Below, piece after piece: positions 8,455 through 50,500 of a stretch of 63,214 nucleotides of DNA. Numbering within the stretch: the stretch's first letter is position 1; the number at the start of each line of letters is the position of its first letter. This stretch comes from a virus (lineage: Duplodnaviria; Caudoviricetes), in the IMG/VR virus record IMGVR_UViG_3300009509_000021, positions 1-63,214 of that record. One strand, written 5' to 3'. The notes below the pieces were generated by a model. The model had not been told where the DNA came from. It worked only from the letters and a program-made list of their open reading frames with translations, and did not search any database. The translations under genes and the position numbers were made by a program.

Positions 8455-8985
8455 TTACGATGCCAGCTTCGACTCGGCCTTCTCCACCGCTTTGTTGATA
8501 GCAGCGAACGACTTGCCGTTCTTCTGCGCGGTCTTGACAAGACGGAGTACTGCCTCGTCCAGATCCCACGATTTCGCAGGCGTGGACTTACCGAACACAT
8601 CTTCCTTCTCGAAGTACTCAACAAGCAGGGCCTCAAACTTGTGACCGACCGTACCGTCCTCGAACGTGTGGTCTGCCATCAGCTTGGCATACTTACCCTT
8701 CTGCTGCTTACCTGAGAACACACGGTCAGTGCCTGACCATGCGAAAGGAACCAGACTCGGCACTACGCGGGCGAACGTGCGATAGCGACCACACGCCAGC
8801 GATGCTTCAACCATGCGGTTGATGTGCGTCGTGTCGTTGGTCTCAATCGTGCGTGCGATAGCGTTTGCACACAGAGTCTTGAAGTGATCGAGTTGCTGCG
8901 GTCCAGTCTTGATAAGCCCAAGAACTTGGGACGAGAAAGAGCGATTGCTCAGGCGGTCGAACCGTACCAGTTTGATTGCTTCCAT
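8455..8985 (-). CDS. First gene of the leftward early arm; hypothetical protein
   Basis: Start MEAIKLV after CTGGAGATGGA. Confidence 0.7.
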   Translation of the reverse strand: MEAIKLVRFDRLSNRSFSSQVLGLIKTGPQQLDHFKTLCANAIARTIETNDTTHINRMVEASLACGRYRTFARVVPSLVPFAWSGTDRVFSGKQQKGKYAKLMADHTFEDGTVGHKFEALLVEYFEKEDVFGKSTPAKSWDLDEAVLRLVKTAQKNGKSFAAINKAVEKAESKLAS

Positions 8986-8989
8986 TGTT

Positions 8990-9390
8990 CCATCTCCAGT
9001 AAACGGTGCAGAATTGCACCCCAAAGCACCCGCGTCGCAGACGCTTTGGCGGTGGAATTCTCCACAGTTTCCTGCTGCCTTTCTTGGGCTGGTCCGATCG
9101 GACCCCCTCGCGCCGGGTTAAGCATATGTCTCCAACGGAGTGATGCGTGACCGACTGGCTGAGTCTAAGGCGTGAGCACTTTCTACGTGTCTGGTGTTAC
9201 CAGAGTAGGCTCCAAGTCTACCAACTACGGCAGAGTCCTTTAATCAACCCCCTTGCCGACTTCTGATCGCGTCGTCTCGGCGTCTTGCTCTCGCGTGACG
9301 CCTAACCGAACACAGCGGCCGTCAGGTTGAACCCTCCACAAGCACCTGACCGGGGCGACGTATCGCACATGCGTATCAGGTACTCATCTA
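8990..9390 (-). ncRNA. Candidate structured leader or ncRNA
   Basis: About 400 nt with no convincing ORF and many hairpins, e.g. GTCAGGT/ACCTGAC, GGCGTC/GACGCC, CGGCA/TGCCG, TCTGGT/ACCAGA, GGTCCGATCGGACC, CCAAAGC/GCTTTGG, GGTGCA/TGCACC. Confidence 0.4.
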
Positions 9391-9545
9391 TCGGATTATT
9401 AACAAACGACCCCCGGCATGGACAGGCCCACCCCCACACGGTCCGGCGCTCATCTAAGTCCCCCATAAGTAGTTGCAAAATATGAAATGAGGATGTAATC
9501 TACACCGCCTAACCGCAGCACCATGGAATTTCTAGCACTACGATA

Positions 9546-9857
9546 ATGAACATTCACTTCCGCTCGAATCAGCCAGTTCATCTCAATGCGACCATCATCT
9601 TCGTCGGCGGAGCCACCTATGCGTTCCAATGTCGCCTGACCGGTCAAAAATCAGTATGCGGTGTTCACACGATCGTGGGGAGAAAGCCATCCGACATCAA
9701 AGAGCTCTGGCTCGAATACGACGGCGTGAAATACCAGTATCCATTGGTCATGGATGGCAAGCGAGACGGTTTGGCGGTGATCGACATTTACGGCGGCCGG
9801 GATAAGTGGTCGGAGCTGCTCAGACGCAAGGCCATGGAGGTGCCGGTCGGTGAATAA
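9546..9857 (+). CDS. Hypothetical protein
   Basis: 103 aa; C-terminus GGRDKWSELLRRKAME is shared with the next ORF. Confidence 0.6.
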   Translation: MNIHFRSNQPVHLNATIIFVGGATYAFQCRLTGQKSVCGVHTIVGRKPSDIKELWLEYDGVKYQYPLVMDGKRDGLAVIDIYGGRDKWSELLRRKAMEVPVGE

Positions 9858-10215
9858 AACCATACGCGGCGGAATTCTGTGGATTGAAAATAGACATGAG
9901 TATTCTATCCATATAGAATGGGCTCAGTTCAATTCCTACGAGAATCCACGAACTTGGGACTTTCACGAAAAAGATCACAAACTCAGTCCGTACTTCGGGC
10001 CGAGCAATACCGCGAAACTGGCAATACCGGTGCGCGGCTCCGGGAGGGTGTGGATAAGGTATCAGACCGGGGGCGCTGCGGATCCTCACCTTACCACGTT
10101 CGATGTTACATACGATGCGCAGGGGGAGCCTTTCCCGTATATACTGGGCGGCGACAAGTGGAACGACTTACTCCGCCAAGCCGCAATGGATGCGCCTAAT
10201 GACGACTCTCAGTAA
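9850..10215 (+). CDS. Hypothetical protein
   Basis: GTG start after GGAGG; C-terminus GGDKWNDLLRQAAMD. Confidence 0.65.
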   Translation: MNKTIRGGILWIENRHEYSIHIEWAQFNSYENPRTWDFHEKDHKLSPYFGPSNTAKLAIPVRGSGRVWIRYQTGGAADPHLTTFDVTYDAQGEPFPYILGGDKWNDLLRQAAMDAPNDDSQ

Positions 10216-10507
10216 CACCTTCATACCAGAGCTGTGGAGTGAGCAGATCATCAAGGATTTCAAATTCAATCTCACTGGGGCAATTGTGCAGAAGCAGAGC
10301 AAGGGTACGCGCTTGTTGCGTGCGGCTGCTTTGGGTGTGCCTCAGGAAGAAATTGACAAAATCGACAACGAACCGGACTACGTGACAACAGGAGAACTGT
10401 ATGAGTACCTTAAGGACGAGTGGACTAACGACGCTGCTGATGCTCTGCGGTATGCTATTGATGCAGACATCATGGGCAACCTGTCCACCGGGGCACGAAC
10501 GAAATGA
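10199..10507 (+). CDS. Small protein with major-capsid-like motifs
   Basis: FIPELWSEQIIKDF vs capsid FIPQLWSGKIIEKF; WTNDAADALRYAIDADIM vs capsid WADDASEQMKIEIDTDVL. Confidence 0.6.
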   Translation: MTTLSNTFIPELWSEQIIKDFKFNLTGAIVQKQSKGTRLLRAAALGVPQEEIDKIDNEPDYVTTGELYEYLKDEWTNDAADALRYAIDADIMGNLSTGARTK

Positions 10508-11249
10508 CTCGTGCTCAGACGAAGCGGACAGCATCACGTCTAGCTCAACTGCGACCGCAGGAGCTACGTCGAATAGTGAAGCTACTGCAGGAGCAACCTC
10601 TACCGCCACTTCAAGTTCGGGCGGTAATAGCCAATCCGTCAGTATTACAAGCGATCACCCACGAACTACCACGATCCGTAATGTGGCGAGCCCGGATACG
10701 CCTAATCCGTACCCTACTGCCCCTTGTCGGGTTGGTGTTTCGGCGGGGTTATCTCTGGCAGGTGGTGCGCTGAGTGGCGGAGGCTCTGTCGAAGATACCG
10801 AGTGTACGCTCCGTGAAACCGCAAGGTCGTTTAAGGACTTGGGTGTACCGGAGCTTGGGCTTTATCTCCTTTGCACACAGAGCGACGTTGTCAATGGACG
10901 GCGCAATAAGAAGGGTGAACTTGAAGACGATCAGCCCCAGCCCATTGGGTCCGCTGAATGTCTACGACTCGTACGGCAATATCAAGGGAGTCCTGATGAG
11001 CATGTCAGTGAGCGAGGCGACGTTGAGGAGCTTAGGCGGCAAGTGGAAGTTCTACAAGAGCAGCTCGATCAGAGTGAGTCAGCGCATGAAACCCTTGCAT
11101 CCGAAGTCGCTGAAGTACGCGAACTCCGTAATCGTCCCGCTCCACGACCTGCCGCACCTCGGACTGAGATAATTCAGCAGGAATACATCACACCTGAGAA
11201 GCGAGCCAAGCTCGCCGCGCTCATTTCAGACGAAGATAGTCGGGAGTAA
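10401..11249 (+). CDS. Putative secreted/periplasmic Cys-containing protein with coiled-coil tail
   Basis: Signal-peptide-like N-terminus, S/T/A linker, C-x-G-rich-x-DxxC...LLC domain; AGGAG RBS. Confidence 0.65.
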   Translation: MSTLRTSGLTTLLMLCGMLLMQTSWATCPPGHERNDSCSDEADSITSSSTATAGATSNSEATAGATSTATSSSGGNSQSVSITSDHPRTTTIRNVASPDTPNPYPTAPCRVGVSAGLSLAGGALSGGGSVEDTECTLRETARSFKDLGVPELGLYLLCTQSDVVNGRRNKKGELEDDQPQPIGSAECLRLVRQYQGSPDEHVSERGDVEELRRQVEVLQEQLDQSESAHETLASEVAEVRELRNRPAPRPAAPRTEIIQQEYITPEKRAKLAALISDEDSRE

Positions 11250-11254
11250 AAATC

Positions 11255-11530
11255 ATGTGGGAGCAGATCAAAGAGTTCAAGGAAGTACTCACACTCATCA
11301 GCGGCGCGGCAATTGTGCTGATGGCCATTGGAGGCTATTTGATGGAGTGGCGGATCGACGTAAATGTGCGAGAGCAGGTGAATGCAGTCAATGCAATCAC
11401 ACCGCAACAGCTTGAAGTTGTTGTCACGAAGTTGGAGGCAATCAAGGGCGACGTGTCACAGCTGGAAGGGGCCAATTCTCGCTTGGAGGATAAGATCGAT
11501 CAGGTGATCGGTATTTTGCTGGAGGATTAA
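11255..11530 (+). CDS. Membrane-anchored coiled-coil protein
   Basis: One TM segment, then heptad repeats. Confidence 0.65.
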   Translation: MWEQIKEFKEVLTLISGAAIVLMAIGGYLMEWRIDVNVREQVNAVNAITPQQLEVVVTKLEAIKGDVSQLEGANSRLEDKIDQVIGILLED

Positions 11531-11537
11531 AAGGCGT

Positions 11538-11972
11538 ATGCTAAACTGGTTCTATAACTGGATTGATCCCAAGATCCTGAGATTAGAGAAATGGGTCAAC
11601 CGCAAAGTTGTGCAGGAAAACTTGATCGACATCGACTTGGACAAAATCAAGAAAGACGAGGTGCGTGAAAACAATATGTTTCGTCAACCGCCGAAAGACG
11701 GCTCATACGGACCTTTTCTCACAAACCTGCAGGATGGTGTTGTCACAGAGTACATGGTGGGCCCCAGCGAATTTGAAGCGTTCGCTAAAATTGAATGTCG
11801 GGGCGAAAATTGGTGGCGACACCGCGATGGCGGTACAACTGAGGATTTCCGCGAGGAAGCCTTTGACGACATGAAAGAGTTTTTCGAGTACGCAATAGGG
11901 GACACCCAGAAATATTGGGATTGTCAGTTACGAACCAAAGCCTTGAAGGAAGACGATGGACCTGAGAACTAG
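11538..11972 (+). CDS. Hypothetical protein
   Basis: 144 aa, GGAGG RBS. Confidence 0.6.
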   Translation: MLNWFYNWIDPKILRLEKWVNRKVVQENLIDIDLDKIKKDEVRENNMFRQPPKDGSYGPFLTNLQDGVVTEYMVGPSEFEAFAKIECRGENWWRHRDGGTTEDFREEAFDDMKEFFEYAIGDTQKYWDCQLRTKALKEDDGPEN

Positions 11973-12567
11973 ACGTGAAATTGAAGCCCGAAATCGTAAC
12001 GCTGAGTACCAAAGACGGAGGTCGGACGTGGCAGCCGGTACGTCTTGCAGGCATGAAATTGCTTTGCTTGCGCCTAAGGGTTGCGTTGGGGTCGAGTGTG
12101 GTGTTGACACTGGCCAGTTTTCTGAAAGGTTGTGGAATACCGGTCAGTTTTCGGCCTTTCATTCAGTTGATAAATGGGACGATATCGCGCATCCCGAGAC
12201 ACAGTATTGGGCTGCATGTGAAAAATTGATTCCTTACGAGGGGATTCGCGTATGGCATATGACGGCACAGCAGTTTGCGAAGATAGCGGGATATGCGAAC
12301 TTGAAGTTTGGGTTCATCTACATGGATTGCTACGCGCATACGGGGCAAGATTCTGGCGGAGTCTTGGAAGCGATGTGGCCACTTTTGGAAGATGGTGGGG
12401 TGTTTGCAGGAGATGATTACGATGAAAAACAATGGCCAGATAACTACCGGCTCGCAAACGAGTTCGCAGAGCGAGTGGGCAAAGCTATCTACCAATTCGA
12501 CGAACACCTCGGTGACAGTGACCGACCTAAGTACGATACCTACCCTAGCTGGATCATCCATAAGTAA
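11956..12567 (+). CDS. Class I SAM-dependent methyltransferase (Methyltransf_24-like)
   Basis: GVECGVDTG, SVDKW, FIYMD..H, LEDGGVFAGDDY. Confidence 0.85.
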   Translation: MDLRTRREIEARNRNAEYQRRRSDVAAGTSCRHEIALLAPKGCVGVECGVDTGQFSERLWNTGQFSAFHSVDKWDDIAHPETQYWAACEKLIPYEGIRVWHMTAQQFAKIAGYANLKFGFIYMDCYAHTGQDSGGVLEAMWPLLEDGGVFAGDDYDEKQWPDNYRLANEFAERVGKAIYQFDEHLGDSDRPKYDTYPSWIIHK

Positions 12568-12601
12568 TGGGTACTACTACGTAGACACTAGCGTGGGAAC
12601 C

Positions 12602-12778
12602 ATGACCGTCACTCCGCCACAACCTATGGGGTCCATGCTGACCCTGATGAAAACTGGTGATGGGGAGTTTGTTTTGTCTGGGCAGAACGCTCAACGTCTG
12701 TTGATGGAATATTTTGAGCAATCGCCTGAATTGTGGCTACGGCTCATGGCACTAAAAGTGGAGGAAAATGATGGCTAA
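12602..12778 (+). CDS. Hypothetical small protein
   Basis: Fills the gap; start uncertain. Confidence 0.35.
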   Translation: MTVTPPQPMGSMLTLMKTGDGEFVLSGQNAQRLLMEYFEQSPELWLRLMALKVEENDG

Positions 12779-12995
12779 GCCCCGTTCAGGGATGGTAAAG
12801 TCGAATTTGTTTATTGACCCAAAGGTCCAGAAAGGCATTCAATTTCTGGCTGAAAGGCGCGGTACGTCTTATTCGGCGCTGGTGCGAGAGGCCATGAGGT
12901 CTTTTCTCATTGAGGCACTCAAAGAGGAAAAGGAGATCGCACAGCTTGAGGAAGGGAGTGAGATAGTTGAGCACGCTGCCAGCGACAGTAGCTGA
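12768..12995 (+). CDS. Ribbon-helix-helix (CopG/Arc-like) DNA-binding protein
   Basis: beta strand KSNLFI then LAERRGTSYSALVREAMRSFL. Confidence 0.75.
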   Translation: MMAKPRSGMVKSNLFIDPKVQKGIQFLAERRGTSYSALVREAMRSFLIEALKEEKEIAQLEEGSEIVEHAASDSS

Positions 12996-13443
12996 CTTCA
13001 ATGCGATTTCTGATTCGGATTCTCGGCTCGCTGTTGAGATCGCAATCCAGATCCGCCCCGTTGCAGACATCTTGGGGGTATATAACCTCTCCCGGAAGGA
13101 CTTGGTACGTAAACTCAAAGACCCCATGTTCCGAGACATGGTCAAGCAAGCCAAATCGCTGTGGAGTAGTGATCTCTCTGTCAAAGAACGCATCCGACTC
13201 AAGTCGCAGGTTCTTGTCGAGGACTCCATGCTTGAAATCTTCTCAATCCTACACAATCGAGATAACGCAATCCCAGCCCGCCTCGATGCTTTCAAACAAC
13301 TCGCAAGAGTCGCAGAAGTGGATCAGCCTGAGCGCGGGAAAGGTGATTCGGGTTCAAGGTTCACCGTCTCAATCAATCTCGGAGATACAATCCAACCAGT
13401 CGTAATTGAGGGAACAAGTCATGGCGAAAATGAAACCGCATAA
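12967..13443 (+). CDS. Putative terminase small subunit
   Basis: Helical 158 aa with N-terminal HTH-like part and C-terminal FTVSINLG strand; upstream of TerL. Confidence 0.55.
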   Translation: MSTLPATVADFNAISDSDSRLAVEIAIQIRPVADILGVYNLSRKDLVRKLKDPMFRDMVKQAKSLWSSDLSVKERIRLKSQVLVEDSMLEIFSILHNRDNAIPARLDAFKQLARVAEVDQPERGKGDSGSRFTVSINLGDTIQPVVIEGTSHGENETA

Positions 13444-13573
13444 ACCCGCAAAGGTAAAATCTCCCATTCTTGAAAAAGCAAAGAAAGTGCCGCCCGGTGG
13501 TTCAAAGACTCCCGGCGCTAAGGGCACTTACCCGATGCCGAAGGCTAAGAAAAAAGCCCCGAGGAAGAAGTGA
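13421..13573 (+). CDS. Lys/Pro-rich 50-aa peptide (not in ORF track)
   Basis: MAKMKPHKPAKVKSPILEKAKK...KAKKKAPRKK; TGATG coupling to next gene. Confidence 0.6.
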   Translation: MAKMKPHKPAKVKSPILEKAKKVPPGGSKTPGAKGTYPMPKAKKKAPRKK

Positions 13574-13875
13574 TGGCCGAAGGTGGTGAAAAACGTTCTA
13601 AAACCGCTCATCGTACCCCTTCTCAAATCAAGCGCCATGGAAGAACGTATCAAGCGACGCCTAGCCAAAAGAAAAAACGAGCTAAGCGCAATGCTGCTCG
13701 TGCAAAAGTTGTCGCTGAACGAGGTGCGTCTGCTGTACGGGGAAAGGACGTCGGTCATAAGACCCCTCTTAGCAAGGGTGGGGGTAACAGTAGCAGCAAT
13801 CTTAAAGTCCAAAGCAAAAATAAAAATCGCGGCCACGGAATGACAAGGGGGAAGAAACCCAACAAAGGCAGGTGA
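13573..13875 (+). CDS. Basic HNH-endonuclease-like protein
   Basis: KDVGHKTPLSKGGGNSSSNL...NR; adjacent to terminase. Confidence 0.7.
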   Translation: MAEGGEKRSKTAHRTPSQIKRHGRTYQATPSQKKKRAKRNAARAKVVAERGASAVRGKDVGHKTPLSKGGGNSSSNLKVQSKNKNRGHGMTRGKKPNKGR

Positions 13876-13878
13876 TTT

Positions 13879-14067
13879 ATGAATTGCGAAGATTGTAGGT
13901 ATTTCGAGGCAAAAGAAAGCCGAGAACACGAAGGTTATTGCCATAGGAACCCACCGCTGCCGAGCGCATTTCCTGATCCACATGATGGTAGAGAATGTGT
14001 GACACAGTACATTCACGTAACCACTACAGATTCTAACTGGTGTGGTGAATGGAAGGCGATAATGTAA
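13879..14067 (+). CDS. Small four-Cys metal-binding protein
   Basis: CEDCRYF...GYCHRNPP...WCGEW. Confidence 0.7.
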   Translation: MNCEDCRYFEAKESREHEGYCHRNPPLPSAFPDPHDGRECVTQYIHVTTTDSNWCGEWKAIM

Positions 14068-14192
14068 TGCCAGCAAAAACGAAAAAGCAGCAACGCTTCA
14101 TGGGCATGTGCTCAACGACGAAAGGCCGTAAAAAGGCAAAGGGTAAATGCCCACCCAAAAAAGTGGCAAAAGAGTTTGCCCGTAAGAAATGA
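14067..14192 (+). CDS. Basic 41-aa peptide (not in ORF track)
   Basis: MPAKTKKQQRFMGMC...KVAKEFARKK; TAATG and ATGA coupling on both sides. Confidence 0.65.
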   Translation: MPAKTKKQQRFMGMCSTTKGRKKAKGKCPPKKVAKEFARKK

Positions 14193-15613
14193 AACTTGAC
14201 TTCACGCCAACACCAACCTGCCGAGATTTCATGCTCTCCAAAAAGAGAGTACGTTTCTTGGTCGGAGCTGTTGGATCGTCTAAAACAACGACATGCCTTT
14301 ATGAAATCCTCCGTAGGGCAGCTGAACAGGCTCCAGCGGAAGACGGGACTCGCTATACACGTTTTGCAATCATACGCAACACACTCGCGGCAATTAAGAG
14401 TACCGTACTTAAGGATATTCAGCAGATATTCGGCCCTATTATTGACTATCGGGTTTCGGAGTCTACGGTCTATATAAGACAGGGTGACATTCACTGTGAG
14501 ATATTGCTTATACCGTTGGACACTCCTGATGACCAAAAGCGCCTCCTGTCTTCGCAGCTCACGGGCGCTTACTTTAACGAATTTGTCGAAGTTGACCCTG
14601 TGTTTATTTCTGGAGCCCTTGGTCGTTGTGGTCGCTACCCTTCACAGCTCAGGGGTAAACCGACATGGTACGGTGTCTTTGCAGATTCAAACCCGGGGAC
14701 CGAGGACTCGCCCTATTATGAAATACTTAAGGTCGAATTACCGGAGTCCTACGGTTACTTCGAGCAACCGTCACCGCTACTGAGAGACGATGCTGGCAAC
14801 ATTACAGAGAACCCTGCTGCCGAGAATATTGAGAATCTGCCGGGTGGATTTGACTACTACTGGACACTACTCAATGGTGCTTCGCCAGAATGGTCTGAGC
14901 GGTTTGTATTCGGTCAGTGGGGTGAGTCCCTTGAAGGTCAGGCAGTTTTCAAAAACACGTTCACGGAGAGCTTTCATGTGGCGACATCTGAGCTTACTCC
15001 ATCGGCTGGTCACGCGCTTATCATTGGGATGGATTTTGCTCGTGCGCCTGCTGCAGTCATCTGTCAAGTGGACCACACTGGGCGTTTGCTGGTCTTGCAA
15101 GAAGCGTATGAAGAAAACATGGGCGTTGAAAAGTTTGTTCGTGACCGCCTCATGCCCATCGTGTTCAGCCCACGCTTTCAGGGGAAACCCATGTACATCG
15201 TCGGGGATCCTAGTGGTACGACCAAGTCACAAATCGGGGAACGATCCGTTTTCTCAATGATACGAGGTCTTGGTTTTGAGGCGGTTCCTGCACAAACGAA
15301 TCATATTAAACCTCGGTTGGATGCTGTGGAGAAATGGCTCCTCATGCAGCGAGAGGGTTCAGCGGCAATACTTTTTGACCCAGTCGGCTGTCCTGAGCTT
15401 ATTACTGCTCTTAAACACAAATATCGTTATCGAGCTCGTAAAGATGGAGAGCTGGAAGATAAGCCCCATAAGGTCCGTCCTTGGGCTGATCTTGCTGATG
15501 CTTTGCAGTACGCTTGTCTCGGCACTGCTCAGAACCTTATGGGTAAAGTGATGAGACGTATGCAACGAAGTCACGAGAAAAAACCCGATATGCCTGTAGG
15601 AGCATGGACATGA
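14189..15613 (+). CDS. terL: Terminase large subunit
   Basis: GAVGSSKT Walker A, YFNE Walker B, DSNP, nuclease IGMDF, GDPSG, DLADALQY. Confidence 0.92.
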   Translation: MKLDFTPTPTCRDFMLSKKRVRFLVGAVGSSKTTTCLYEILRRAAEQAPAEDGTRYTRFAIIRNTLAAIKSTVLKDIQQIFGPIIDYRVSESTVYIRQGDIHCEILLIPLDTPDDQKRLLSSQLTGAYFNEFVEVDPVFISGALGRCGRYPSQLRGKPTWYGVFADSNPGTEDSPYYEILKVELPESYGYFEQPSPLLRDDAGNITENPAAENIENLPGGFDYYWTLLNGASPEWSERFVFGQWGESLEGQAVFKNTFTESFHVATSELTPSAGHALIIGMDFARAPAAVICQVDHTGRLLVLQEAYEENMGVEKFVRDRLMPIVFSPRFQGKPMYIVGDPSGTTKSQIGERSVFSMIRGLGFEAVPAQTNHIKPRLDAVEKWLLMQREGSAAILFDPVGCPELITALKHKYRYRARKDGELEDKPHKVRPWADLADALQYACLGTAQNLMGKVMRRMQRSHEKKPDMPVGAWT

Positions 15614-16059
15614 TTATCACCCTAGAACGTTTTGCTTATCTTGACGACTGCACGAGAGGTGTGATGCATGTCGGTAACCAACAATTCCAGACCATTGAAA
15701 GACCTTGGGTTAAAAATCCAGCTGGCCCGGGCGGGATGCCGTTTCAGAGTTGTGTCCCGGATGGTACGTATCGTGTACGTGCTTACACACGCCCTTCTGG
15801 AAAGAAGGCATTTATCTTATCAAACCCTGATTTGGGAGTCTGGGAGCAGCAAGAAGACCGTGACTCTACCACGTGGGGGCGTTATCTGATTCTCATACAC
15901 CCCGGCAACACCGTCGAAGACGTAGTCGGGTGTATAGCTCCCGGCCTGACTGGATCGGATCGCTCCGTTGGCAATTCTCGCGCTGCGATGCTGAAGCTGC
16001 ATGAGCTTCTTGAAGGATACGAGCATGACCTCGCAATCCGGCCCAAGGGCACGAGCTAA
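15610..16059 (+). CDS. DUF5675-like protein (candidate endolysin)
   Basis: TIERPW, CVPDGTY, ILIHPGN...GCI. Confidence 0.75.
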   Translation: MIITLERFAYLDDCTRGVMHVGNQQFQTIERPWVKNPAGPGGMPFQSCVPDGTYRVRAYTRPSGKKAFILSNPDLGVWEQQEDRDSTTWGRYLILIHPGNTVEDVVGCIAPGLTGSDRSVGNSRAAMLKLHELLEGYEHDLAIRPKGTS

Positions 16060-22693: not shown

Positions 22694-24736
22694 ATGGCGG
22701 GTATTCTCCAAGTAGCTTCTCCTCAGCAAGTCGCTGACTATGAAGCCCGCGTCCGAGCTGAAAGGGAACCTCCAATTCAGCCAATGGAAATTGAAGGATT
22801 GGTGGCGCTGATTCGTCGCGAGTTCAACGATGCCCGCAATGCTCGATATACCAATGGTGTGTCTCAGAGGCTCATTGAAGCCCAACGCACTTATCGAGGC
22901 GAGTACTCTCCTGAGAAGCTCCGTGCTATCAAAGCGTTTGGCGGGTCAGATGTCTACTCCCGGGTCACACCCACCAAATGTCGCGGAGCCACTTCTGTCC
23001 TCAGGGACTTGTATCTATCCGGATCCGAGCCTCCATGGGAGCTCCAACCAACTCCCATACCTACGCTACCTGAGGACATTGCCGAGGCCGTAATAGGCCT
23101 CGTGCAGTCTGAGGTGCAGGCAGCCCAGCAGCAAGGGCTGACCGTTAACGAAGATATGATCCGGGATCGTATGAACCAGATGTATAACGCAGCACAGATG
23201 GCTGCTATACGTACATCAATCGAAGAAGCCAAGGATGCAAGTCGTCAGCTCAATGATGTATTAACCGAGGGTGGTTTTTACCGAGCGCTCAAAGAATTCC
23301 TCATTGACCTGCCGATTTTCCCTATCGCTTGTATCAAGGGCCCCACCGTGCGGCTCAAGACCAAGGTTCGATGGAAAAATGGAAAGCCATCCCGAGAGAC
23401 CGCCCCCAAGCTATTCTGGGATCGCGTCAGCCCCATGGACTTGTATTTCACCCCTGATGCTGGACATCTAGACGAGTCCTATATCATTGAACATGTTAGG
23501 TATTCTCGGCAGGAACTATACAATTTGATTGGCGTCCCGGGGTTCAAAGAGGACGAGATCAGAGCAGTACTGGCTGACTTCAAAGATAAAACTCAGTCCC
23601 GTCAGTGGAGGGACTGGTTTGATGAGGAAAGGGAAGACCTTGAGGACCGAGACCACTGGGAGTCCGCCCGTGGCCAGCTAATTGACGCTCTTGAGTGGCA
23701 TGGTTGCGTACAGGGACAGATGCTGCTGGACCACGGGTTTACCGAGAAAGACATCCCGGACCCTGAACAGGAATACATGGTTGATGCGTGGCTAGTTGAC
23801 CGCTATTGCATCAAAGCACAAATCTCTCCGGGCGTTACGCAACGTCCCAAGTACTACATCACCAGTTTTGAAAAGATCCCCGGATCCATTTGGGGCTATG
23901 GCTTACCAGACATTCTGCAAGATATCACGTCTGTCTGTAACACCACGATGCGCAGTATTGTCAACAACCTGTCAATAAGCTCCGGCCCGCAGGTTATTGT
24001 CAATCTCGATCGATTAGCTCAGACCGAGGATGCGAACACTCTCTACCCGTGGAAACGTTGGCATGTGGTAGATGATCCGTTGGGCAACAACACTCAGAAA
24101 CCTATCGAGTTCTACCAGCCCAACTCCAACGTTCAGGAGCTAATGGCCGTCTATGAGAAGTTTGCAAACATGGCGGACGAAGCATCGGCTCTCCCCAAGT
24201 ACCTCACCGGCTCGGGCGCAACTGGCGGCGCAGGCCGTACAGCGTCTGGTCTTGCGATGCTTATGGATAACGCATCTAAAGTTATGCAGAACGTCGCGGC
24301 GAATGTGGATGATGACATCCTCACACCTTCTATAGAGGGCTTGTACGAGATGGTCATGATGAGTTCGCAGGGGCCAGAACTCAGAGGCGACGAGACCATT
24401 GTTGTCAAGGGCGTGACAGTAGCCGTCCAGAAGGAAACGGACCGGATGCGCAAACTTGAGTTCTTGCAGATGACCGCGAACCCGATTGACATGCAAATCA
24501 TGGGTATCCCGGGCCGCGCTGCTGTACTCGAAGATGTTGCGGAAGAACTTGGTATGAAAGGGAAAAAGATAGTACCATCTCCCGAAGAACTTGGTGGCAT
24601 GGGGCAACCCCCACCGCCACAAGTAGGAGGAGCTCCGGGTGGGCCACAGGCAGCTCAAGCTCCGGAAGCAGGCCGTGACCCCGCTATGGCAGCGAGACAA
24701 GGCCAAGAAAATGTGACCCGAGGAGTCGTTCAATGA
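22694..24736 (+). CDS. Portal protein
   Basis: 680 aa; RVSPMDLYF, IWGYGLP, N..ISSGPQ, RTASGLAML; Q/P-rich tail; upstream of scaffold and capsid. Confidence 0.88.
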   Translation: MAGILQVASPQQVADYEARVRAEREPPIQPMEIEGLVALIRREFNDARNARYTNGVSQRLIEAQRTYRGEYSPEKLRAIKAFGGSDVYSRVTPTKCRGATSVLRDLYLSGSEPPWELQPTPIPTLPEDIAEAVIGLVQSEVQAAQQQGLTVNEDMIRDRMNQMYNAAQMAAIRTSIEEAKDASRQLNDVLTEGGFYRALKEFLIDLPIFPIACIKGPTVRLKTKVRWKNGKPSRETAPKLFWDRVSPMDLYFTPDAGHLDESYIIEHVRYSRQELYNLIGVPGFKEDEIRAVLADFKDKTQSRQWRDWFDEEREDLEDRDHWESARGQLIDALEWHGCVQGQMLLDHGFTEKDIPDPEQEYMVDAWLVDRYCIKAQISPGVTQRPKYYITSFEKIPGSIWGYGLPDILQDITSVCNTTMRSIVNNLSISSGPQVIVNLDRLAQTEDANTLYPWKRWHVVDDPLGNNTQKPIEFYQPNSNVQELMAVYEKFANMADEASALPKYLTGSGATGGAGRTASGLAMLMDNASKVMQNVAANVDDDILTPSIEGLYEMVMMSSQGPELRGDETIVVKGVTVAVQKETDRMRKLEFLQMTANPIDMQIMGIPGRAAVLEDVAEELGMKGKKIVPSPEELGGMGQPPPPQVGGAPGGPQAAQAPEAGRDPAMAARQGQENVTRGVVQ

Positions 24737-25691: not shown

Positions 25692-26768
25692 GTGGCGCTC
25701 CCAAAACAATTACGCGATCAGATTAAGCAAGGCAAAAATATCGAAGCAGAGCTTCGTAAGCAGCAGGCAGAGGCCGGTCAAACCGATACCTCTCAGCAGG
25801 AAATCGATGCGCTGCTTGCATCAGTAACTCCTGAGGAAGAAGCGCCGAAGGAGGAAAAGAAATCTGCCAGCGTAACTGAACTCCACCCAACGACTGATGA
25901 AGGAGGTGATCCGGCATCTACGCCCGAGGTCAAGCCCGAACGTACCGACTGGAAGCAGAAGTACTCGGTATTGAAAGGCAAGTATGATGCGGAAGTTCCT
26001 CGCCTGTCGTCAGATTTACGGGATGCCCACAATCGAATCAGTAGGCTGGAAGATAAGCTCACTGAGGTAGCGGCAAAACCGGTCACGCAGCCTGAGGAAA
26101 CCAAACCTCGGACGGACTTTACGCCTGAAGAAATCGCTGATTACGGTGAGGATCTTCTGGACGTAATGGGGCGTAAGGCACGCTCAATTGTGGAGGCTGA
26201 ATATCTCCCGCGTATCGATTCGCTCAATGCAGAAATCAATTCACTCAAGCACCAGCTTGGTGAGACCGGCCAAAGAGTCGGCAAGTTTGAAACCAATAGT
26301 GTGTTCGCTCAGCTCGATCAAGAAGTCGAAAACTGGCGAAACATCAACGTAGATCCAGAGTTTCACGAGTGGCTGGATAACGTAGACCCGTACACGGGTG
26401 AAACTCGTAAAGAGCTCATGTTGAAAGCCTTTAACCAAAAAGACGCCCACCGGGTTAAAGCATTCTTCGTGAACTACAAGAAGGAAAACGCTGCTGTAAT
26501 GCCAACATCAGCCGATCCAACACCCTCTGGGCAAGGGGGAATGGAATCCGGATCGAGACTGGAACTTGGCGATTACGTATCCCCCGGTACGCCAAAGGGC
26601 GGGGGTAATGCGGGCGCTCCTAGAGAAAAACGTCAATGGACTTCTCGGGAAATTGGTGCGTTCTACTCTGATGTACAGAAGGGTAGGTATCGTAGCCGAC
26701 CTGAGGATAAGGCCAGAATCGAGGCAGACATTGTTGCTGCCACACGAGAAGGGCGTGTAACTGCTTAA
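25692..26768 (+). CDS. Capsid scaffolding protein
   Basis: Acidic coiled coil, WKQKYSVLKGKY, C-terminal EADIVAATREGRV; directly before capsid. Confidence 0.8.
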   Translation: MALPKQLRDQIKQGKNIEAELRKQQAEAGQTDTSQQEIDALLASVTPEEEAPKEEKKSASVTELHPTTDEGGDPASTPEVKPERTDWKQKYSVLKGKYDAEVPRLSSDLRDAHNRISRLEDKLTEVAAKPVTQPEETKPRTDFTPEEIADYGEDLLDVMGRKARSIVEAEYLPRIDSLNAEINSLKHQLGETGQRVGKFETNSVFAQLDQEVENWRNINVDPEFHEWLDNVDPYTGETRKELMLKAFNQKDAHRVKAFFVNYKKENAAVMPTSADPTPSGQGGMESGSRLELGDYVSPGTPKGGGNAGAPREKRQWTSREIGAFYSDVQKGRYRSRPEDKARIEADIVAATREGRVTA

Positions 26769-26785: not shown

Positions 26786-27736
26786 ATGGCAACAATTTTT
26801 CCACAAGTAGCCAGTGCTGGCGCGAGTGCGTTTAACTCGCTCCCCGCAACGGACTACAGCGGGGTCTTTATCCCGCAGCTTTGGTCTGGAAAGATCATCG
26901 AGAAGTTCTACGATGCGACTGTCCTCGCGGCTATCGCAAATACGGACTACGAAGGTGAGATTACCAGTTATGGCGACAAGGTTACGATTCGTACCAAGCC
27001 GAAAATCACCATCAACGACTACCTCGCATACAGCCCGCTGACGACTGAAACGCCGTCCAGTACTGCTGTAGAGCTGCTCATCGACCAAGGTAAATATTGG
27101 TCTACGGCTCTTGACGATGTCATGGAAGTCCAGTCGGACCTCGACCACTTCAGCCTGTGGGCAGACGATGCCTCTGAGCAGATGAAGATCGAGATCGACA
27201 CCGACGTCCTCGCTGGCATCCCGGCAGGTGTGTCTGCTAACAACCAAGGCGGCACCGCAGGTGTTCAGAATGGCACGTCGATTGACCTCGGCGCAGCCGC
27301 TGCACCGGTTACTGTTAGCGCAACCAATGTGATCGAGAAGATCATTCAGTGTGGCCAGATCCTTGACGAGAACAACATCCCTGAGACGGGTCGTTGGATT
27401 GTTATCCCTGCGTGGATGGCAGCTCTCATCAAGACGTCTGACCTGAAGGACGCTTCGCTGACTGGCGATGGCGTTTCGATGCTGCGCAACGGCCGTCTGG
27501 GTATGATTGACCGATTCACGCTGTATGCGTCGAACCTGCTTCCGTGGAATGCATCGGATTCGGCCAACACGATTATCTTCGGTCATTCGCACGGCCTGAC
27601 GTTTGCTTCGCAGCTGACGAAGGTTGAGACGCTTCGTGCAGAAAGCACCTTTGGTACGATCCTGCGTGGTTTGCAGGTCTTCGGCTACAAGGTTGTAGAC
27701 GGCACGGCTCTCGGTCTCCTGTACGCAACGCGGTAA
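26786..27736 (+). CDS. Major capsid protein (HK97 fold)
   Basis: FIPQLWS, DYEGEI..GDKVTI, LDENNIP..GRW, G.LGMIDRF.LY.SN, GLQVFGYKV. Confidence 0.92.
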   Translation: MATIFPQVASAGASAFNSLPATDYSGVFIPQLWSGKIIEKFYDATVLAAIANTDYEGEITSYGDKVTIRTKPKITINDYLAYSPLTTETPSSTAVELLIDQGKYWSTALDDVMEVQSDLDHFSLWADDASEQMKIEIDTDVLAGIPAGVSANNQGGTAGVQNGTSIDLGAAAAPVTVSATNVIEKIIQCGQILDENNIPETGRWIVIPAWMAALIKTSDLKDASLTGDGVSMLRNGRLGMIDRFTLYASNLLPWNASDSANTIIFGHSHGLTFASQLTKVETLRAESTFGTILRGLQVFGYKVVDGTALGLLYATR

Positions 27737-44536: not shown

Positions 44537-47500
44537 ATGGCATGGCGAGAGCTGACACAAGAAGACGAGGTAAAACAGACCCCGCCTGAGAGCAATCAAG
44601 GGTTCGCCCTGCCTGTTCCTCAGGATCCTGAATTTACTGACCTCAAAAAATCGCTCTTTGAGGAAGTCAAAGCTGGTATCCAAGGGGCTGAAGACCCGCG
44701 TTTCGCTCGGCTCCGCTTCGGCCCACGGGACAGGCAGGGCGGCGGTGGTGAGGGAGCGCTGCCTCCTGAAGAACCGACACAGTGGCGTCAGCTTGAAGAC
44801 CCACCGCCTGCACCAAAACCAAAAGAAGAAATGGGTGTCTGGGACCGTCTCGTTGATTGGACCAGTCGTAGCGTAATTGAACAGATGGCTGGCGGTGCCC
44901 GAGAGATGGGACAACGCTTTGCTTTCGAGTCAGCTACCGAGACCGGCAAGGAACTACAGCAAGTACGCGATCTTGAAGGCCAGCCTGAAGGACAAACTGG
45001 ATACTTCGGCCCTCGTAGTCTTGGCGATATGATGCGCCACCCCTTCAAGTACATGAACCCTGTTGACGCACTCGCCAAGATGGGGCTGTCGGCAACTGAA
45101 GAAGGGCGACAGGTACTCGAAGCCAAGCTGCTTGAGGAGATGCAGGGGAAGCTGGACAAGGCTAAAAAGTATGCTGAAGGCGCTGAGATGCGTCCCTTCT
45201 CCAAAGTTACACAACAGTTTTTGAATCCTGAGTCTGAAAATTCAGCTTGGGAAGACTTTATGGCCGACCCGGTGACCATTGTTGCCGAGCTGGGAACTCG
45301 GTCACTCCCCAATATGGCACCGGGTATGGCCCTCGGTGTGGCCGGTGGTACAGCTGCCGGTCTCCCCGGCTTCTCCGCAGGTATGGGTGCTGGTTCAGCT
45401 CGTGTTGAGTATGCAGCCACCATTATGGATGAACTGCAGAAGCAAAAGATTGATGTCTATAACGCCGAAGAACTTATGGGGGTTCTCGGTAATAGTGAAT
45501 TGATGGATGAAATCCATCAGAAAGCAGTCACTCGCTCTAAGAATATCGGCGGTGCTGACGCAGCAGCAGGTGCCCTTGGCGGAACAGTTCTCGTCAAGAA
45601 ACTGGGCGGCCCTGTCATTACGAAGCTGACAGAAGCAATTGCTCAGATGGGTACGCAGGGAACGCTCGGTGGTCTTGGTGAAGCCCTTGCTATGGAGGCT
45701 ACTGGTGAAGCAGATAGCCTCTGGGAAGCTGCACAAACTCGTGATGTTCTTGCTGAAGTTGCTGGTGAGGCTGTTACGGCTCCGATTGATGTGGCCGCTG
45801 CAACCATCTCAGGAGTACGTGAGCAGCGTGCTGGCAAGACCGTACCAATAGCAGAGACAGACATTGATCCTGATACTGGTAAGCCAGTCATCCGTAAAGA
45901 ACCAGAGGTCGAGGTCACGCCTGACGTACAGGCTGAGACCAGAGCCCCAGCATTTGAAACGCCCGAAGATGGTATGTCTGAAGCTGAACGTGCAGGTATT
46001 GAAGCTGCACTTGATGAGCAGGCGCAACCAGAACAAAGTACACTCGATCTTCCCCCGCAGGAAGGGCAACCGGCACCACCAACCCCTGAGCCTACGCAAG
46101 CGACGCCGACGCCTCCTGCGGGGGAGACTCAAACAGCTCCGGTAGAAGACCAAGTAATCACTGAAGAAGACTTGGTTAATGAGCCTTCGCTCCCGGATAT
46201 GAATGAGTCCACAGCAACTCCTGAGGATGTTGCTGCTATTACTCAGCGAGAAGAAGACCTTGCAGAGCCTGCTCCTGCTCCAGTAGAGGAAGCGCAGCCT
46301 GTAGAGAGCCCAATGATCGACAAGAAAGAAGTCGAGACTGGGTTCCGTGATCTCAATAAGCGTACTAAAAAAGGTATGCCGGGTATTCGTAGGGCTATCC
46401 GCGAGCTAGGCACTGCCATTCAAGCTGTTTTCCCTGACGCTAAGCTGCCCTCCTTGAAGGGGACGATTGGGCCAAAGCGTATAGCAGACTTTTTCGCCAC
46501 GCTGGACGAGCAGGTTGTCATTGATGATGTCCTGCCTAACCTCAAGGAGTATCTGCGTGCCGTACTGGAAAGTCCTGATGCAGCTACTGCTGTGCAGAAT
46601 TTCAACAGCCTCAAAGAATACGTACAGAATAGTGGTGTCGGTGTTGTATCGGAGGGTGCGAAGACTCCATACTTACAGCAGGCTACTAAGGGCATAACCG
46701 CCTACGATACCTATGAAGCTGAGCGAACTTCTAAAAAACAGAAATACAAAACTGTCGATAAGAACAAGAAGTCTCCGACCTACGGTAAGGTGGTTGAAAG
46801 AGAGCGACTCACAGGTCCAAAGAATCGACTGGCTAACCGTGCAGTGGCAGTTGATGAACTTGCTACGACGGTTACGTCGCTTACTGAAAGAGCTACGGAA
46901 CTTGGCATTAGCGTCCCTGCTGAGGTTAACGAGACAGTACGTAGGGCCCGCTCTTACCGTGAGAGCTCTCAGATCGCAAAACCCAGAACTCTTAAAGGCG
47001 GGGCAGGATCGACTGTCACGCCTCAAAAGTTTAGCGCAAAGAATCTCAACGAAGTCGGCGGGAAATTACGGGCAGCGGCCCAAACTCTAGTCGAACAAAT
47101 CGCTGCAGCAGAGGCTGAAGCCCCGAAAAAGCCTAAGGTAGAGGCTAAGGTCGAGGCGAAAAAGCCCGTTACAGAGGCTCCTGCGAAGCCGAAAAAAGCT
47201 GAAGCAGCCAAAAAGACCTCAAAAGCCAAGGCTGAGAAGAAGGCAGCTCCTGAGAAGCCCGCTGCCAAGAAGGAGCAAGCTCCTGCGCTGAAGGCTTACA
47301 ACGAGCTACGTCAGCGTGCTAAAGAACTTGGTGTCAAGTCTACTGGCAAGAAGGAGGAGCTCGCTGCCCGCGTTGCTGAAGCAGAACAAGCCCGTGGTGA
47401 GGTAAAAGTTGAGAAACAAGTCAAGGTCACCAAGAAGGGTAAGCCCAAGAAGGTTGAGACTGTCAAGGCTGCTCCGGATCCTGAAGCAGTCATCGAGGTT

Positions 47501-50500
47501 GCACCTGTACCCACCCGTGGTAAGCAGGCTGGCAAGGTGGTCGAGGAGCTGGGCTTTGAAGCGGGCACTTCGCTGGCGGAAGCCTTAGAAGAATCAGGCA
47601 TTGACAAGAAATCTGCCGACCGTGTTCGTGGCCTCATTGCACAGGCTGATGAGGAAGGGCAGAAGAAAATCATTCAGGCCATCCGGAACTACAAGGGTGC
47701 TGATGACATGGTCAACTTCGTCGCTACTGTCAACGATGCACTGGGAGGGCAGGTTGATAACGTAGCGATGATGGATGTTCTCAAGTTCGTAGAGACAATG
47801 GCTGAACGTAAAGCCATGACTCTTGATGAGCAGAACAGAAGCGCCTCGCAGGAAGCCTTGGCTGAAGAAGCAGCGGCGCAAGGTATGTCTGTCGAGGACT
47901 ACAAGTTCATCTTGGAGGAGACTGGGCAGTACAACGAGGAGATGGAGCAGGCTGAGACTCCATGGAGCGATGAGTTCCATGATATGTCAGTCGATGAGTT
48001 TGAGAACTCGCAGTTCATGACCTCAGACAGTGTGCCTCAGGGTGCGCTGGATAGCATGAAAGACATCGTCCGCGCCATGATGAAGAAGGGTGGACTGATC
48101 GACTTCATGTACCGGTTCACCAAGCAGCGCGGTAAGCCGGACCCCGGTCCCATGACTGTCAATGGTCTGCTGGAAGCCATCATTACAGCATTGCCTGAAA
48201 ACAACAGGTATGTTCCGTTGGCTCGCAGGCTGCTACAGCTTGACCTCGATATCCCCGTATACCTGTACGATGATTCTCCGTCACTGTCTGATGGTCGCAA
48301 GGTCTTGGGATCATACTATCCGGGCAACGAGTTTGACCCATCGACTCGCCGGATCAGGCTGTACTGGGGTGAGGACACCGACAAGCGTCGGGTGATTGCC
48401 ACCGCCTTGCATGAGATTGTCCATGCCGCAACGCTGGCAGGCTACCACTCTGACCCGGTGTTCCGCTCAGAGATTGATGCCCTGTATGACCAAGCTGTTG
48501 AAGCAATGGATCAACAGGAACCGAACTGGCGTGACATGAATGTCCAGAAGACCGCGAAGTACTACGGTCTGACAGATCAGCTTGAATTCATTGCTGAAGC
48601 CTTGACTAACCCAGAGTTTCAACAGTGGCTGTCGCAGATACCAAGCGGCAAGGAACAAAGGCAGACTTCCGTTGCTGGCACGATGTCTGGACTTATGCGT
48701 TCATTCATCAACTCCATCAAGAAATACCTTGGGTACTCCATCCGTAATTCTGTGCTGGAAGATGTCCTGATTCTTGTTGATGCTAACCTGCAGACAGAAG
48801 AAGACGTTTTGATCTCGCAGCAGAAGCTGCAAGTCCAGCATCGCAGAGCAAAGGAAAGGCTGAAGGCAGAAGACACAGTAGTGTCTGAACGTAATGAAGT
48901 ACTTGATACCCAGAAGGAATTGGGTACAACTCTCCGTAGTAAGATCAAACAAATCTTGGGTATGACCAATGACTTGGCACAGAGGGGTAACCTTGGCCTG
49001 AGCAATCTTGATGTAATGGAGAGGGATTTCCGTGCCCTGTTCGATAAGGCAGCAGCGACAATCAAGAAAGCTAACCCGCTCACAGCGTACACCAAGGCGA
49101 AGAACTCGGCCTCAGCGCTGGCTCGCAAGTATGAGAAGCAGGCTTATCAACTCTTAAGAAAACTTCAGAAAGTCGATAACGCTGTGCGCTCAAAGATGGA
49201 AACCATCATGCGAGATGTCACGCTGTCGAACATTGACCCGACGCAGCCGCTGAATAGCGCAGCCAATGCTCACATCTGGACGAAGGGTGGCAAGAAAACA
49301 CCGCCTCGCATATCCAAGAAGTATGCTGACAAGGCACCAAAGGCACGGCAGAACTGGATCAATTTCCAGAAAGCTCATCCGGAAGAAGCAGCACTGCTTC
49401 AGGAGATGGCCGCACTTACTCGTAAGATTCATGATACGAAGGTGAGGTCAGCGCTGTTCGCACTTGGCGAGATGTTTGAACTACCAAGCTCGATGATCTC
49501 AGCGTTGCAAGCCGCCACTGAAGCAGCTGACATTGACAAGATTATCCATCCCGATGCTGTTGAAGTGCTTGAGAAGAAACTCGAAGGCGCAGATAAGAAG
49601 ACCAAGAAAGCTATTGAGAAACTCATAGCACAAGCAGAGGCTCATGCAGAAGTGGCTAAGAGCGCTAAGAAGATACTGCATGAGTCCTCAATCAAGGGAT
49701 GGTATTTCCCGCTGCGTCGTTACGGTGATTTCGTTGTCTCCACTGAGCCCGACGTAACGGGTTCTGACAGGTATGTCTCGTTCCATCAGACACAGGAAGA
49801 AGCCAACCGCATAGCCGCTGCTCTCAACGCCAAGTACCCGGATAACCCGGTTACTGTGTCGCTCAAGTTGCAGAAGGCGGCAAGCACAGCTGATGTCAAG
49901 TCAGTTGTCGGTGACCTGACACGCAGGTTCCGTGGCGAAGGTAACAAAGCTACTCGTGACAGGCTCCGTGCTGCCATGGCAGAAGTACTAGCAGCCAATG
50001 CTGCGTACCAGAGCCAACTCACTCGTCAGAATGTGGATGGTGTAGCTGCATCTGACATGGCCCGAGGGTTCGAGGAGTACGTACACGTATCCAAGTTCAC
50101 TATCGGTGACTTGCTGGTATCACACAGGATTGCTGATGCTATCAATGACCTGAATGATTTGCAGGCAAATGCGACTGGTGTCACTGATAACGAACGGATC
50201 CAGATCGGCCGTGTTGTTAACGAAATCAAGAAGCGTAATGTCAGTGATGCTAATGATCGTCAGATCAGTAAGTTCCAACGAGCTGTTGGTCTGATAGGCT
50301 TCTTTAACTACCTCGGTGCTCCCTCATACTGGGCGCTCAATGCTACCCAGACATACACTGTCACCGTGCCATACATCACGGCTAAGTTTGGTATCAAAGC
50401 ACCGGTTGTTCTTGCTAATGCTCAAGGTACAGTCTTGAAGGCTGTTGCTAAGGCACTCGCAAGTAACGACAAGTCATACGAAGGGTTCAAGGCACAACTC

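Follow-up and report, generated by a model that had tools for sequence, protein, structure and literature searches.

The major capsid proteins (MCPs) assigned to PF25209 (Phage_capsid_4) and phrog_267 include PDB entries 9JWB and 8E16, which are cyanopodophage A4 gp33 and mycobacteriophage Che8 gp6, respectively (PMC12002296; bioRxiv 10.1101/2022.09.09.507160). Another set of capsid-related proteins comprises the C-terminal "helix-and-hook" of the 80alpha scaffold and CpmB of SaPI1, which are small and helical, act at the N-arm surface of the capsid and alter its assembly (PMC5644958). The 63,214-bp stretch analyzed here (the window), corresponding to IMG/VR virus record IMGVR_UViG_3300009509_000021, harbors a 102-aa open reading frame (ORF), P0001, referred to below as the mini ORF. 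As judged from sequence and profile comparisons, the mini ORF belongs to a protein family that very probably goes back to the N-terminal third of an HK97-fold MCP. It shares with the PF25209/phrog_267 proteins an N-terminal FIPELWS followed by (T)xEV...DAxxALxxxxDxDhL in the same order. In contrast to these MCPs, the mini protein is only ∼100 aa long, has no stretch able to form an E-loop hairpin, an A-domain or the remainder of the P-domain, and carries an added RSKGxxLLR[DA]AALG segment. Its resemblance to the 80alpha scaffold C-terminus and CpmB would be one of working only, at the capsid–scaffold interface. These proteins mimic the scaffold side, whereas the mini protein would mimic the capsid side, and no relation to CpmB, Sid or similar solved assembly modulators was found among the rows at E ≤ 10 of a profile search of the PDB. 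The literature searches listed no description of a family of truncated or decoy capsid paralogues; one candidate "decoy" paper was set aside, as it used the term only in the mass-spectrometry sense.

An initial annotation made from the letters alone had proposed that the ORF carries two stretches of the capsid protein. The two strings, FIPELWSEQIIKDF and WTNDAADALRYAIDADIMGNL, were located in the mini ORF (Table 1), and their capsid counterparts, FIPQLWSGKIIEKF (26867–26908) and WADDASEQMKIEIDTDVLAGI (27158–27220), within the MCP gene, with 9/14 and 6/21 identical residues by count. BLASTP comparison of P0001 with the MCP of the window showed that the likeness is collinear and above chance, with two high-scoring segment pairs (HSPs), namely, residues 2–21 against 22–41 (11/20 identical, E 2e-5) and residues 75–98 against 125–148 (7/24 identical, E 9e-4). 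Comparison with a foreign MCP (L002:1575-2504) gave a single gapped HSP joining residues 5–92 to 17–132 (34/116 identical, E 3e-9). The whole-genome scan behind the initial annotation was allowed for by searching a 38-member hidden Markov model (HMM) of the family against all 343 stop-to-stop frames of at least 70 aa. The MCP was the only non-self match below E 0.05 (E 4.7e-4, in two collinear stretches), the next frame being found at E 0.055. Profile–profile alignment of the 38 members with 18 MCPs using hhalign gave a probability of 96.7% (E 3.3e-10) and, in global mode, 97.4% (E 4.8e-11). The strongest local segment joined mini residues 70–96 to MCP residues 120–146, and the extended alignment covered mini 3–99 and MCP 23–149. 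All controls remained far below these values, i.e., 0.1% for the reversed MCP alignment, 0.4% for the large terminase subunit TerL (an alignment of four close sequences only), 0.1% for the downstream secreted protein and 0.0% for the scaffold, and 20 column-shuffled MCP alignments reached a best score of 17.4 (E 0.065) vs. 65.4 for the real one.

The reverse comparison was in agreement. At E ≤ 0.01 the MCP HMM recognized 35 of the 38 members; in 16 of these, two collinear stretches each passed the same limit. Its positions 18–51 aligned to mini residues 3–35, and reversed family members reached a best E of 1.1. Searching the family profile against 177,635 PDB sequences yielded four rows at E ≤ 10, of which the top two are capsid proteins and the other two chance matches. 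The first, 9jwb_A (E 0.0032), aligned over two stretches (6–29 to 22–45 and 63–90 to 111–138), and the second was 8e16_I (E 0.032); the MCP of the window matches the same two entries. Among 37 members scanned against PHROG, six matched phrog_267, one phrog_283 and one phrog_3437, all annotated as major head protein, and three matched phrog_332 weakly. The threshold for the capsid family was not reached, as phrog_267 was weak in the six members (best E 7.6e-5) and P0001 itself was not among them, and no capsid Pfam family was found in the 37 members at E ≤ 0.1.

Examination of the capsid features showed the presence of the N-arm motif FIPELWS with its amphipathic helix, as well as of the helix motif DAxxALxxxIDxDhL at the presumed place of the spine helix. 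The distance between the two motifs is shorter than in the MCP by ∼30 residues, as the initial annotation had estimated and the profile alignment showed. The ∼80 MCP residues between them, E-loop included, are replaced by a ∼50-residue segment around RSKGxxLLR[DA]AALG. The complete HK97 fold (N-arm, E-loop, P-domain and A-domain, ∼270–350 aa) is not present in the 102-aa protein. With the A-domain and the other parts of the P-domain missing, the mini protein is unable to build a shell; it derives from a capsid family member as a fragment and is not itself a member. The designation "mini-capsid" was thus borne out in the sense of descent, the homology extending to the N-terminal ∼130 residues of HK97-type MCPs.

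Homologues of the mini ORF were recovered from several sources. A word-indexed search identified three homologues of 104–105 aa with 69–75% identity, and a metagenome scan identified five loci (L005–L009) with relatives at 41–58% identity, all of which start at the same place, directly 5′ of the FIPELWS motif. When 1.84 billion representative proteins were searched by HMMER with a profile of eight sequences, 37 matches were obtained at E ≤ 1e-3, 33 of them small proteins (58–134 aa) in 33 clusters. The other four, very large matches were set aside as repeat proteins, two of these having been viewed by eye and found to be repeat junk. Ten clusters were looked up and carried at most the annotation "hypothetical protein." P0001 matched no Pfam family at E ≤ 1, and its only PHROG row was at E 0.1; on these searches, the family appears to be covered by no Pfam or PHROG family and to be undescribed. 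The motif order in the family alignment is F[IV]PELWS with an amphipathic stretch, (K)RSKGxxLLR[DA]AALG, TATE[VI] or TTGELY, and DAAxALxxAIDxDIL. The best-conserved part is RSKGxxLLR[DA]AALG, in which R41 and A44 are invariant and R33, G36, L40, A43 and G46 are conserved at ≥90%; W13 of the N-arm motif is likewise conserved at ≥90%, and the specific motifs are retained in members down to 25% identity. The family seems to consist of several different cut-downs of the capsid N-terminus. Structure prediction with AlphaFold2 (AF2) from a 37-sequence alignment showed helices at residues 10–28, 35–45, 49–56 and 64–96 and no strands, with a mean predicted local distance difference test (pLDDT) score of 70.6. 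The predicted template modeling (pTM) score was only 0.30, too low to establish how the helices pack against each other; an earlier model with eight sequences (pLDDT 55) was too poor for use.

Two observations on distant members may be recorded here. Some of P0099, P0101, P0109, P0116, P0117 and P0118 have the TATE(V/I) motif ahead of FIPELWS. P0109, P0114 and P0118 end in GD(T/N)(V/I)x(L/I)...(F/L)T(I/V)(T/V)V, which by eye recalls the GDxV strand of the capsid protein, and in the hhalign alignment that strand is placed beside the RSKG of the family.

A tblastn search of GenBank phages with P0001 returned eight records, all at E ≥ 4, and with P0095 none. Scanning IMG/VR with P0001 retrieved capsid genes only. 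The downstream protein and the alignment query A5 gave no match in IMG/VR, and the alignment of the downstream protein gave one cut contig. GTDB genome scans with the alignment queries A5 and A2 gave no match. When the family profile was applied to other phage records, its sole match in four of five was the N-terminus of an MCP-sized frame, and a complete Rhizobium phage genome searched in the same way was without the mini ORF.

The 3′ part of the mini ORF overlaps the downstream gene, a caveat already raised in the initial annotation and confirmed here, as ORF 10401–11249 overlaps the last 107 bases of the mini ORF in the +1 frame. Selection was followed in all frames. For the window and L005, pN/pS (nonsynonymous over synonymous differences) in the 69 non-overlapped codons was 0.34 in the mini frame, 1.00 in +1 and 1.47 in +2; in the overlap it was 7.0 in the mini frame, 0.28 in the +1 frame of the downstream gene and 1.20 in +2. 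For the window and L008, the 20 codons of the C-terminal motif, a small sample, showed pS 0.74 and pN 0.27 in the mini frame and pS 0.23 and pN 0.41 in the downstream frame. Over the whole ORF, dN/dS was examined for 15 pairs, in 8 of which dS was not estimable; the 6 divergent pairs with estimable dS gave 0.24–0.40, at a dS near saturation. A P0004/P0005-like relative differed from the window, among the best-supported differences listed, at one site in 10455–10514 (10462 T>C, synonymous in the mini frame) and at 36 sites in 10515–10662; the drop in differences coincides with the start of the fast-evolving Ser/Thr-rich linker of the downstream protein. The mini protein is under purifying selection, and the overlap is constrained in both frames. 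Many lineages retain the C-terminal helix motif, but in some (L005 and L007) it has decayed. ORF 10199–10507 is thus almost certainly a real protein-coding gene. It stands as a conserved family with a significant capsid alignment, and not as the decayed fragment or chance match that the initial annotation had considered. The arrangement resembles overlapping phage gene pairs in general in its 107-base out-of-frame overlap with signs of constraint in both frames. What sets it apart is that one partner is a cytoplasmic protein derived from the capsid and the other the signal peptide of a secreted protein.

With regard to function, the explanation considered best, a capsid-derived gene acting in head assembly, is advanced as a whole only tentatively, with the odds standing somewhat against it. 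The mini protein would be made from the third gene of a series in which neighbors overlap closely (ORF1, ORF2, mini ORF and secreted protein). It may be a soluble protein of four helices that mimics the MCP surface formed by the N-arm and the spine helix and facing inward, and could bind a partner of that surface, i.e., the scaffolding protein, the portal or the MCP itself. Such binding would tune or block procapsid assembly, either of the phage itself or of a co-infecting relative. Taken alone, this assembly-related mechanism is rather unlikely, and it is proposed from the anatomy of the protein, to which, among the three functions suggested in the initial annotation, that of "assembly modulator" would be best suited. 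An assembly role also agrees with the location at the start of the earlier of the two rightward packaging/head-gene blocks. Complex prediction of the mini family with the scaffold C-terminus (residues 225–358) scored 0.00 in two runs, which weighs neither way. Fold searches of the AF2 model gave no Foldseek PDB match at E ≤ 10, and VIA-align returned generic long helices only (Z ≤ 5.2). A bolder form of the proposal, which we regard as doubtful, is that phages repeatedly cut out the N-arm/spine-helix surface as a separate gene; the family would then be the first recognized "capsid-side" mimic, binding the scaffold or a host capsid sensor and serving either as a dominant-negative weapon aimed at co-infecting relatives of the same capsid type or as a shield from immunity triggered by capsid protein.

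Several observations weigh against a capsid-derived protein acting in head assembly. The library-wide HMMER profile search gave no full-length MCP at E ≤ 1e-3, and hence the homology rests on the targeted comparisons with their controls. The assignment of MCP residues 120–146 to the spine helix, after the E-loop, is one that HK97 topology would suggest. FIPELWS is absent from 5 of the 37 aligned members (P0090, P0097, P0100, P0113 and P0119), which may be short gene calls. The most conserved motif, RSKGxxLLR[DA]AALG, is not capsid-derived and is left unexplained by the mimic model. The C-terminal helix region follows the constraint of the downstream frame in the window/L005 pair, and its motif is degraded in L005 and L007 and therefore dispensable in some lineages. 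The near-identical pair L006/L007 showed a dN/dS of 0.71 from 14 differences only, which is weak evidence of constraint. The mini ORF is absent from the Rhizobium phage relatives (MCP identity 57%) and is accordingly not essential for this capsid type. Finally, the language-model neighbors of the protein were small viral proteins, 14–19% of which have terminase C-terminal domains, at a score of 0.92 and with few shared features.

The conservation of the central motif is the starting point of the main rival explanation, in which RSKGxxLLR[DA]AALG is the working part and the capsid likeness only ancestry. Three co-translated proteins would bind one common phage or host partner and would act with the secreted and the small membrane protein, for instance in envelope remodeling, in the timing of lysis or in excluding superinfection, rather than in head assembly. 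This reading is favored by the motif being more strongly conserved than any other part of the family and by a similar motif at the ends of the upstream paralogues (GGRDKWSELLRRKAM and GGDKWNDLLRQAAM); hhalign of the family against seven upstream-ORF sequences aligned exactly the central motif (76%, E 2.3e-5). The order ORF1(/ORF2), mini ORF, secreted protein and transmembrane protein is also kept in the window and in the sufficiently long loci, and the overlapping or abutting of the four genes suggests coupled translation. In addition, the cluster of a distant member (P0244, grouped with P0120) and a homologue of the secreted protein (P0065) are each recorded on a contig of 41,333 bases, an agreement in length only. 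However, the match at the level of the motif is short and of modest probability, the neighbors have no function assigned through Pfam or PHROG, and the N-arm motif, nearly as conserved at W13, is hard to explain as a relic. This account is rather unlikely. An anti-defense role, in which a free N-terminal capsid fragment titrates or occupies CapRel-, Lit- or STAND/Avs-type sensors as a decoy or blocker, is improbable. In its favor, the gene product copies part of the capsid protein in soluble form, and capsid-sensing defense proteins exist, CapRel reportedly being one. Counter-defense genes are often patchy in distribution, and the mini ORF is likewise an accessory, patchy gene absent from the nearest cultured relatives. 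Nevertheless, it sits in a block with packaging genes and not among typical early genes, and a fragment with the sensed epitope would be expected to trigger the sensor instead of blunting it, unless it acted by blocking.

A role of the ORF as a mere leader or coupling frame, or as an overprinting by-product kept open for the ribosome-binding site, start and signal peptide of the next gene and for ribosome delivery to it, would account for the Shine–Dalgarno sequence AGGAGA (in the GELY codons) and ATG 10401 lying inside the mini ORF, and for the overlap evolving under the downstream frame between the window and L005. A GGAGAG is present at the matching place in L005, as inferred from translation. 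This role is disfavored because of the selection pattern and is very improbable: the 69 upstream codons, which overlap nothing on the same strand, are constrained in the mini frame only, specific motifs are kept across distant members, and in the comparison with L008 the 20 C-terminal codons are conserved in the mini and not in the downstream frame. The initial annotation had also pointed to a terminase likeness, which would make the protein a capsid/terminase chimera with its C-terminal part taken from the TerL nuclease domain. As letters the likeness stands, ADALRYA and ADALQYA (15494–15514, within the TerL ORF) agreeing at 6/7 positions within a 7/9 identical stretch in BLASTP; the only PHROG row of P0001 mentioned above is phrog_6672, "terminase large subunit," and in the nearest Atlas clusters 14–19% of members carry Terminase_3C/6C. 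It does not rise above chance, as the BLASTP stretch has E 0.085, the family HMM scores TerL at E 7.3 away from the ADALQYA site, and the hhalign value is that of the control given above. Moreover, a terminase Pfam family was found in 0/37 members at E ≤ 0.1 and a TerL PHROG in 1/37 (E 0.088), and the segment in question aligns with the capsid profile (E 3.3e-10). A TerL origin was hence rejected as a chance likeness with scarcely any probability left.

The features of the locus and of the two gene blocks are collected in Table 1. ORF1, ORF2, the mini ORF and the secreted-protein gene each overlap or abut the next. In ORF1 and ORF2, a beta-rich body is followed by a C-terminal GG(R)DKW(S/N)xLLRxxAM helix. 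Homologues are found upstream of the mini ORF in L005–L009, where this place is taken by small ORFs, one or two per locus, that end in GGRD(K/H)WSxLLRxxA(L/M). Neither matched a Pfam family (ORF2: E ≤ 1), and a single PHROG row was seen, at E 0.2 (ORF2). Downstream, a plausible signal peptide begins at ATG 10401, the automatic call of this gene (P0007) beginning later, at 10452. The secreted protein has 77 homologues at E ≤ 1e-3, is common in metagenomes and adjoins the mini ORF in all loci seen; where the contig is long enough (L005, L007 and L008), a secreted protein of ∼270–320 aa comes next and overlaps the mini ORF. Its layout comprises a variable signal peptide, a Cys motif (CPPGHERNDSC in close relatives), a Ser/Thr-rich linker, a core and a C-terminal coiled coil, the very conserved Cys-containing core being IRNVASPDTPNPYPTAPCRVGVS...ECTLRETARSFKDLGVPE. 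Beyond it, L007 and L008 encode a small membrane protein and then a protein with the start MLNWFYNW. By eye, 10401–10507 contained no slippery heptamer that would allow a programmed frameshift into the frame of the downstream gene. Contigs of a metatranscriptome run were identical to the window at 9734–10454 and 10696–10937; as DNA may occur in RNA libraries, these were not counted as expression.

Table 1. Coordinates of the mini ORF, its motifs and neighbors, and the main genes of the window.
Feature	Position	Strand	Remarks
Polymerase, helicases, primase (replication)	both window ends	-	
First rightward block: small ORFs, methyltransferase, ribbon-helix-helix protein, phrog_36773 protein, TerL	9546–16059	+	
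Upstream ORF1, 103 aa	9546–9857	+	first gene of rightward block; C-terminal end GGRDKWSELLRRKAME
Upstream ORF2, 121 aa	9850–10215	+	paralogue of ORF1 (alignment); C-terminal end GGDKWNDLLRQAAMD
Mini-capsid ORF, 102 aa (P0001)	10199–10507	+	ATG overlaps end of upstream ORF by 17 bases
N-arm-like motif FIPELWSEQIIKDF, residues 8–21	10220–10261	+	start of predicted helix 10–28 (AF2)
Central motif KQSKGTRLLRAAALG, residues 33–46	10295–10336	+	best-conserved part of the family; no capsid counterpart
Shine–Dalgarno AGGAGA for ATG 10401	10390–10395	+	embedded in conserved GELY codons of mini ORF; 6 bases before ATG
Dual-coding stretch, 107 bases	10401–10507	+	last 35 codons of mini ORF and first 35 of downstream gene (+1 frame), the latter encoding the signal peptide and CPPGHERN
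C-terminal helix motif WTNDAADALRYAIDADIMGNL, residues 75–95	10421–10483	+	aligns to MCP 120–146; inside overlap with downstream gene
Downstream secreted-protein gene, 282 aa	10401–11249	+	signal peptide to coiled coil; phrog_20531 (function unassigned), E 2.3e-6
91-aa protein with N-terminal hydrophobic stretch	11255–11530		after secreted-protein gene
TerL	14189–15613	+	phrog_2, E 2.6e-25
Portal	22694–24736	+	
Scaffold-like protein	25692–26768	+	
Major capsid protein (MCP), 316 aa	26786–27736	+	phrog_267, E 7.7e-54; PF25209, E 2.1e-9

The virus record of the window is complete and carries direct terminal repeats. Among cultured phages, the nearest by MCP belong to the RHph_TM3_14A group of Rhizobium phages (56.8% identity). 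No DNA match to 9500–11500 was found among GenBank phages, the window being without a close DNA relative there, and DNA near-identical to the window was present in metagenome runs of several studies, from marine sediment, estuaries and mangroves. The mini ORF lies 16 kb away from the capsid gene, and a minus-strand stretch separates the first plus-strand block from the second, in which the order is portal, scaffold-like protein, MCP and internal virion protein. At the end of this structural block lies a 2428-aa ORF (44537–51823, plus strand) with no PHROG match at E ≤ 1e-5. The 520-base gap upstream of ORF1 contains a conserved non-coding element, with CCCCGGCATGGACAGGCC at 9411–9428 (plus strand), which is identical in L008 and L009 and differs by a single base in L005. 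After it, at ∼9470–9500 on the same strand, lies a promoter-like GTTGCA, 16 bases, TGTAAT, missed by the simple sigma-70 scan. Sigma-70 and terminator scans of 8900–11700 gave no more sites than shuffled sequences, an Rfam search, also for the 520-base gap, found no family, and a tRNA scan found none. Five IMG/VR relatives (L011–L015) with TerL 88–91% identical were identified, and all their contigs break within TerL or a few kb upstream of it, which may reflect a variable or repeat-bounded region that is hard for assemblers. These contigs thus all end short of the mini-ORF region.

Most small phage ORFs are unannotated, and the mini ORF is one whose origin is traceable to a defined piece of the capsid protein. 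This piece is kept as a gene of its own across many uncultured phages, its relatives being unnamed or annotated as "hypothetical protein." The locus is also a clear-cut case in which a cytoplasmic protein and a signal peptide are encoded by the same bases in different frames, in an overlap that is conserved. If the mini protein does act in head assembly or capsid sensing, it would represent a new class of assembly or conflict factor, drawn from the capsid side of the capsid–scaffold interface, and would provide a short, testable handle on that interface.

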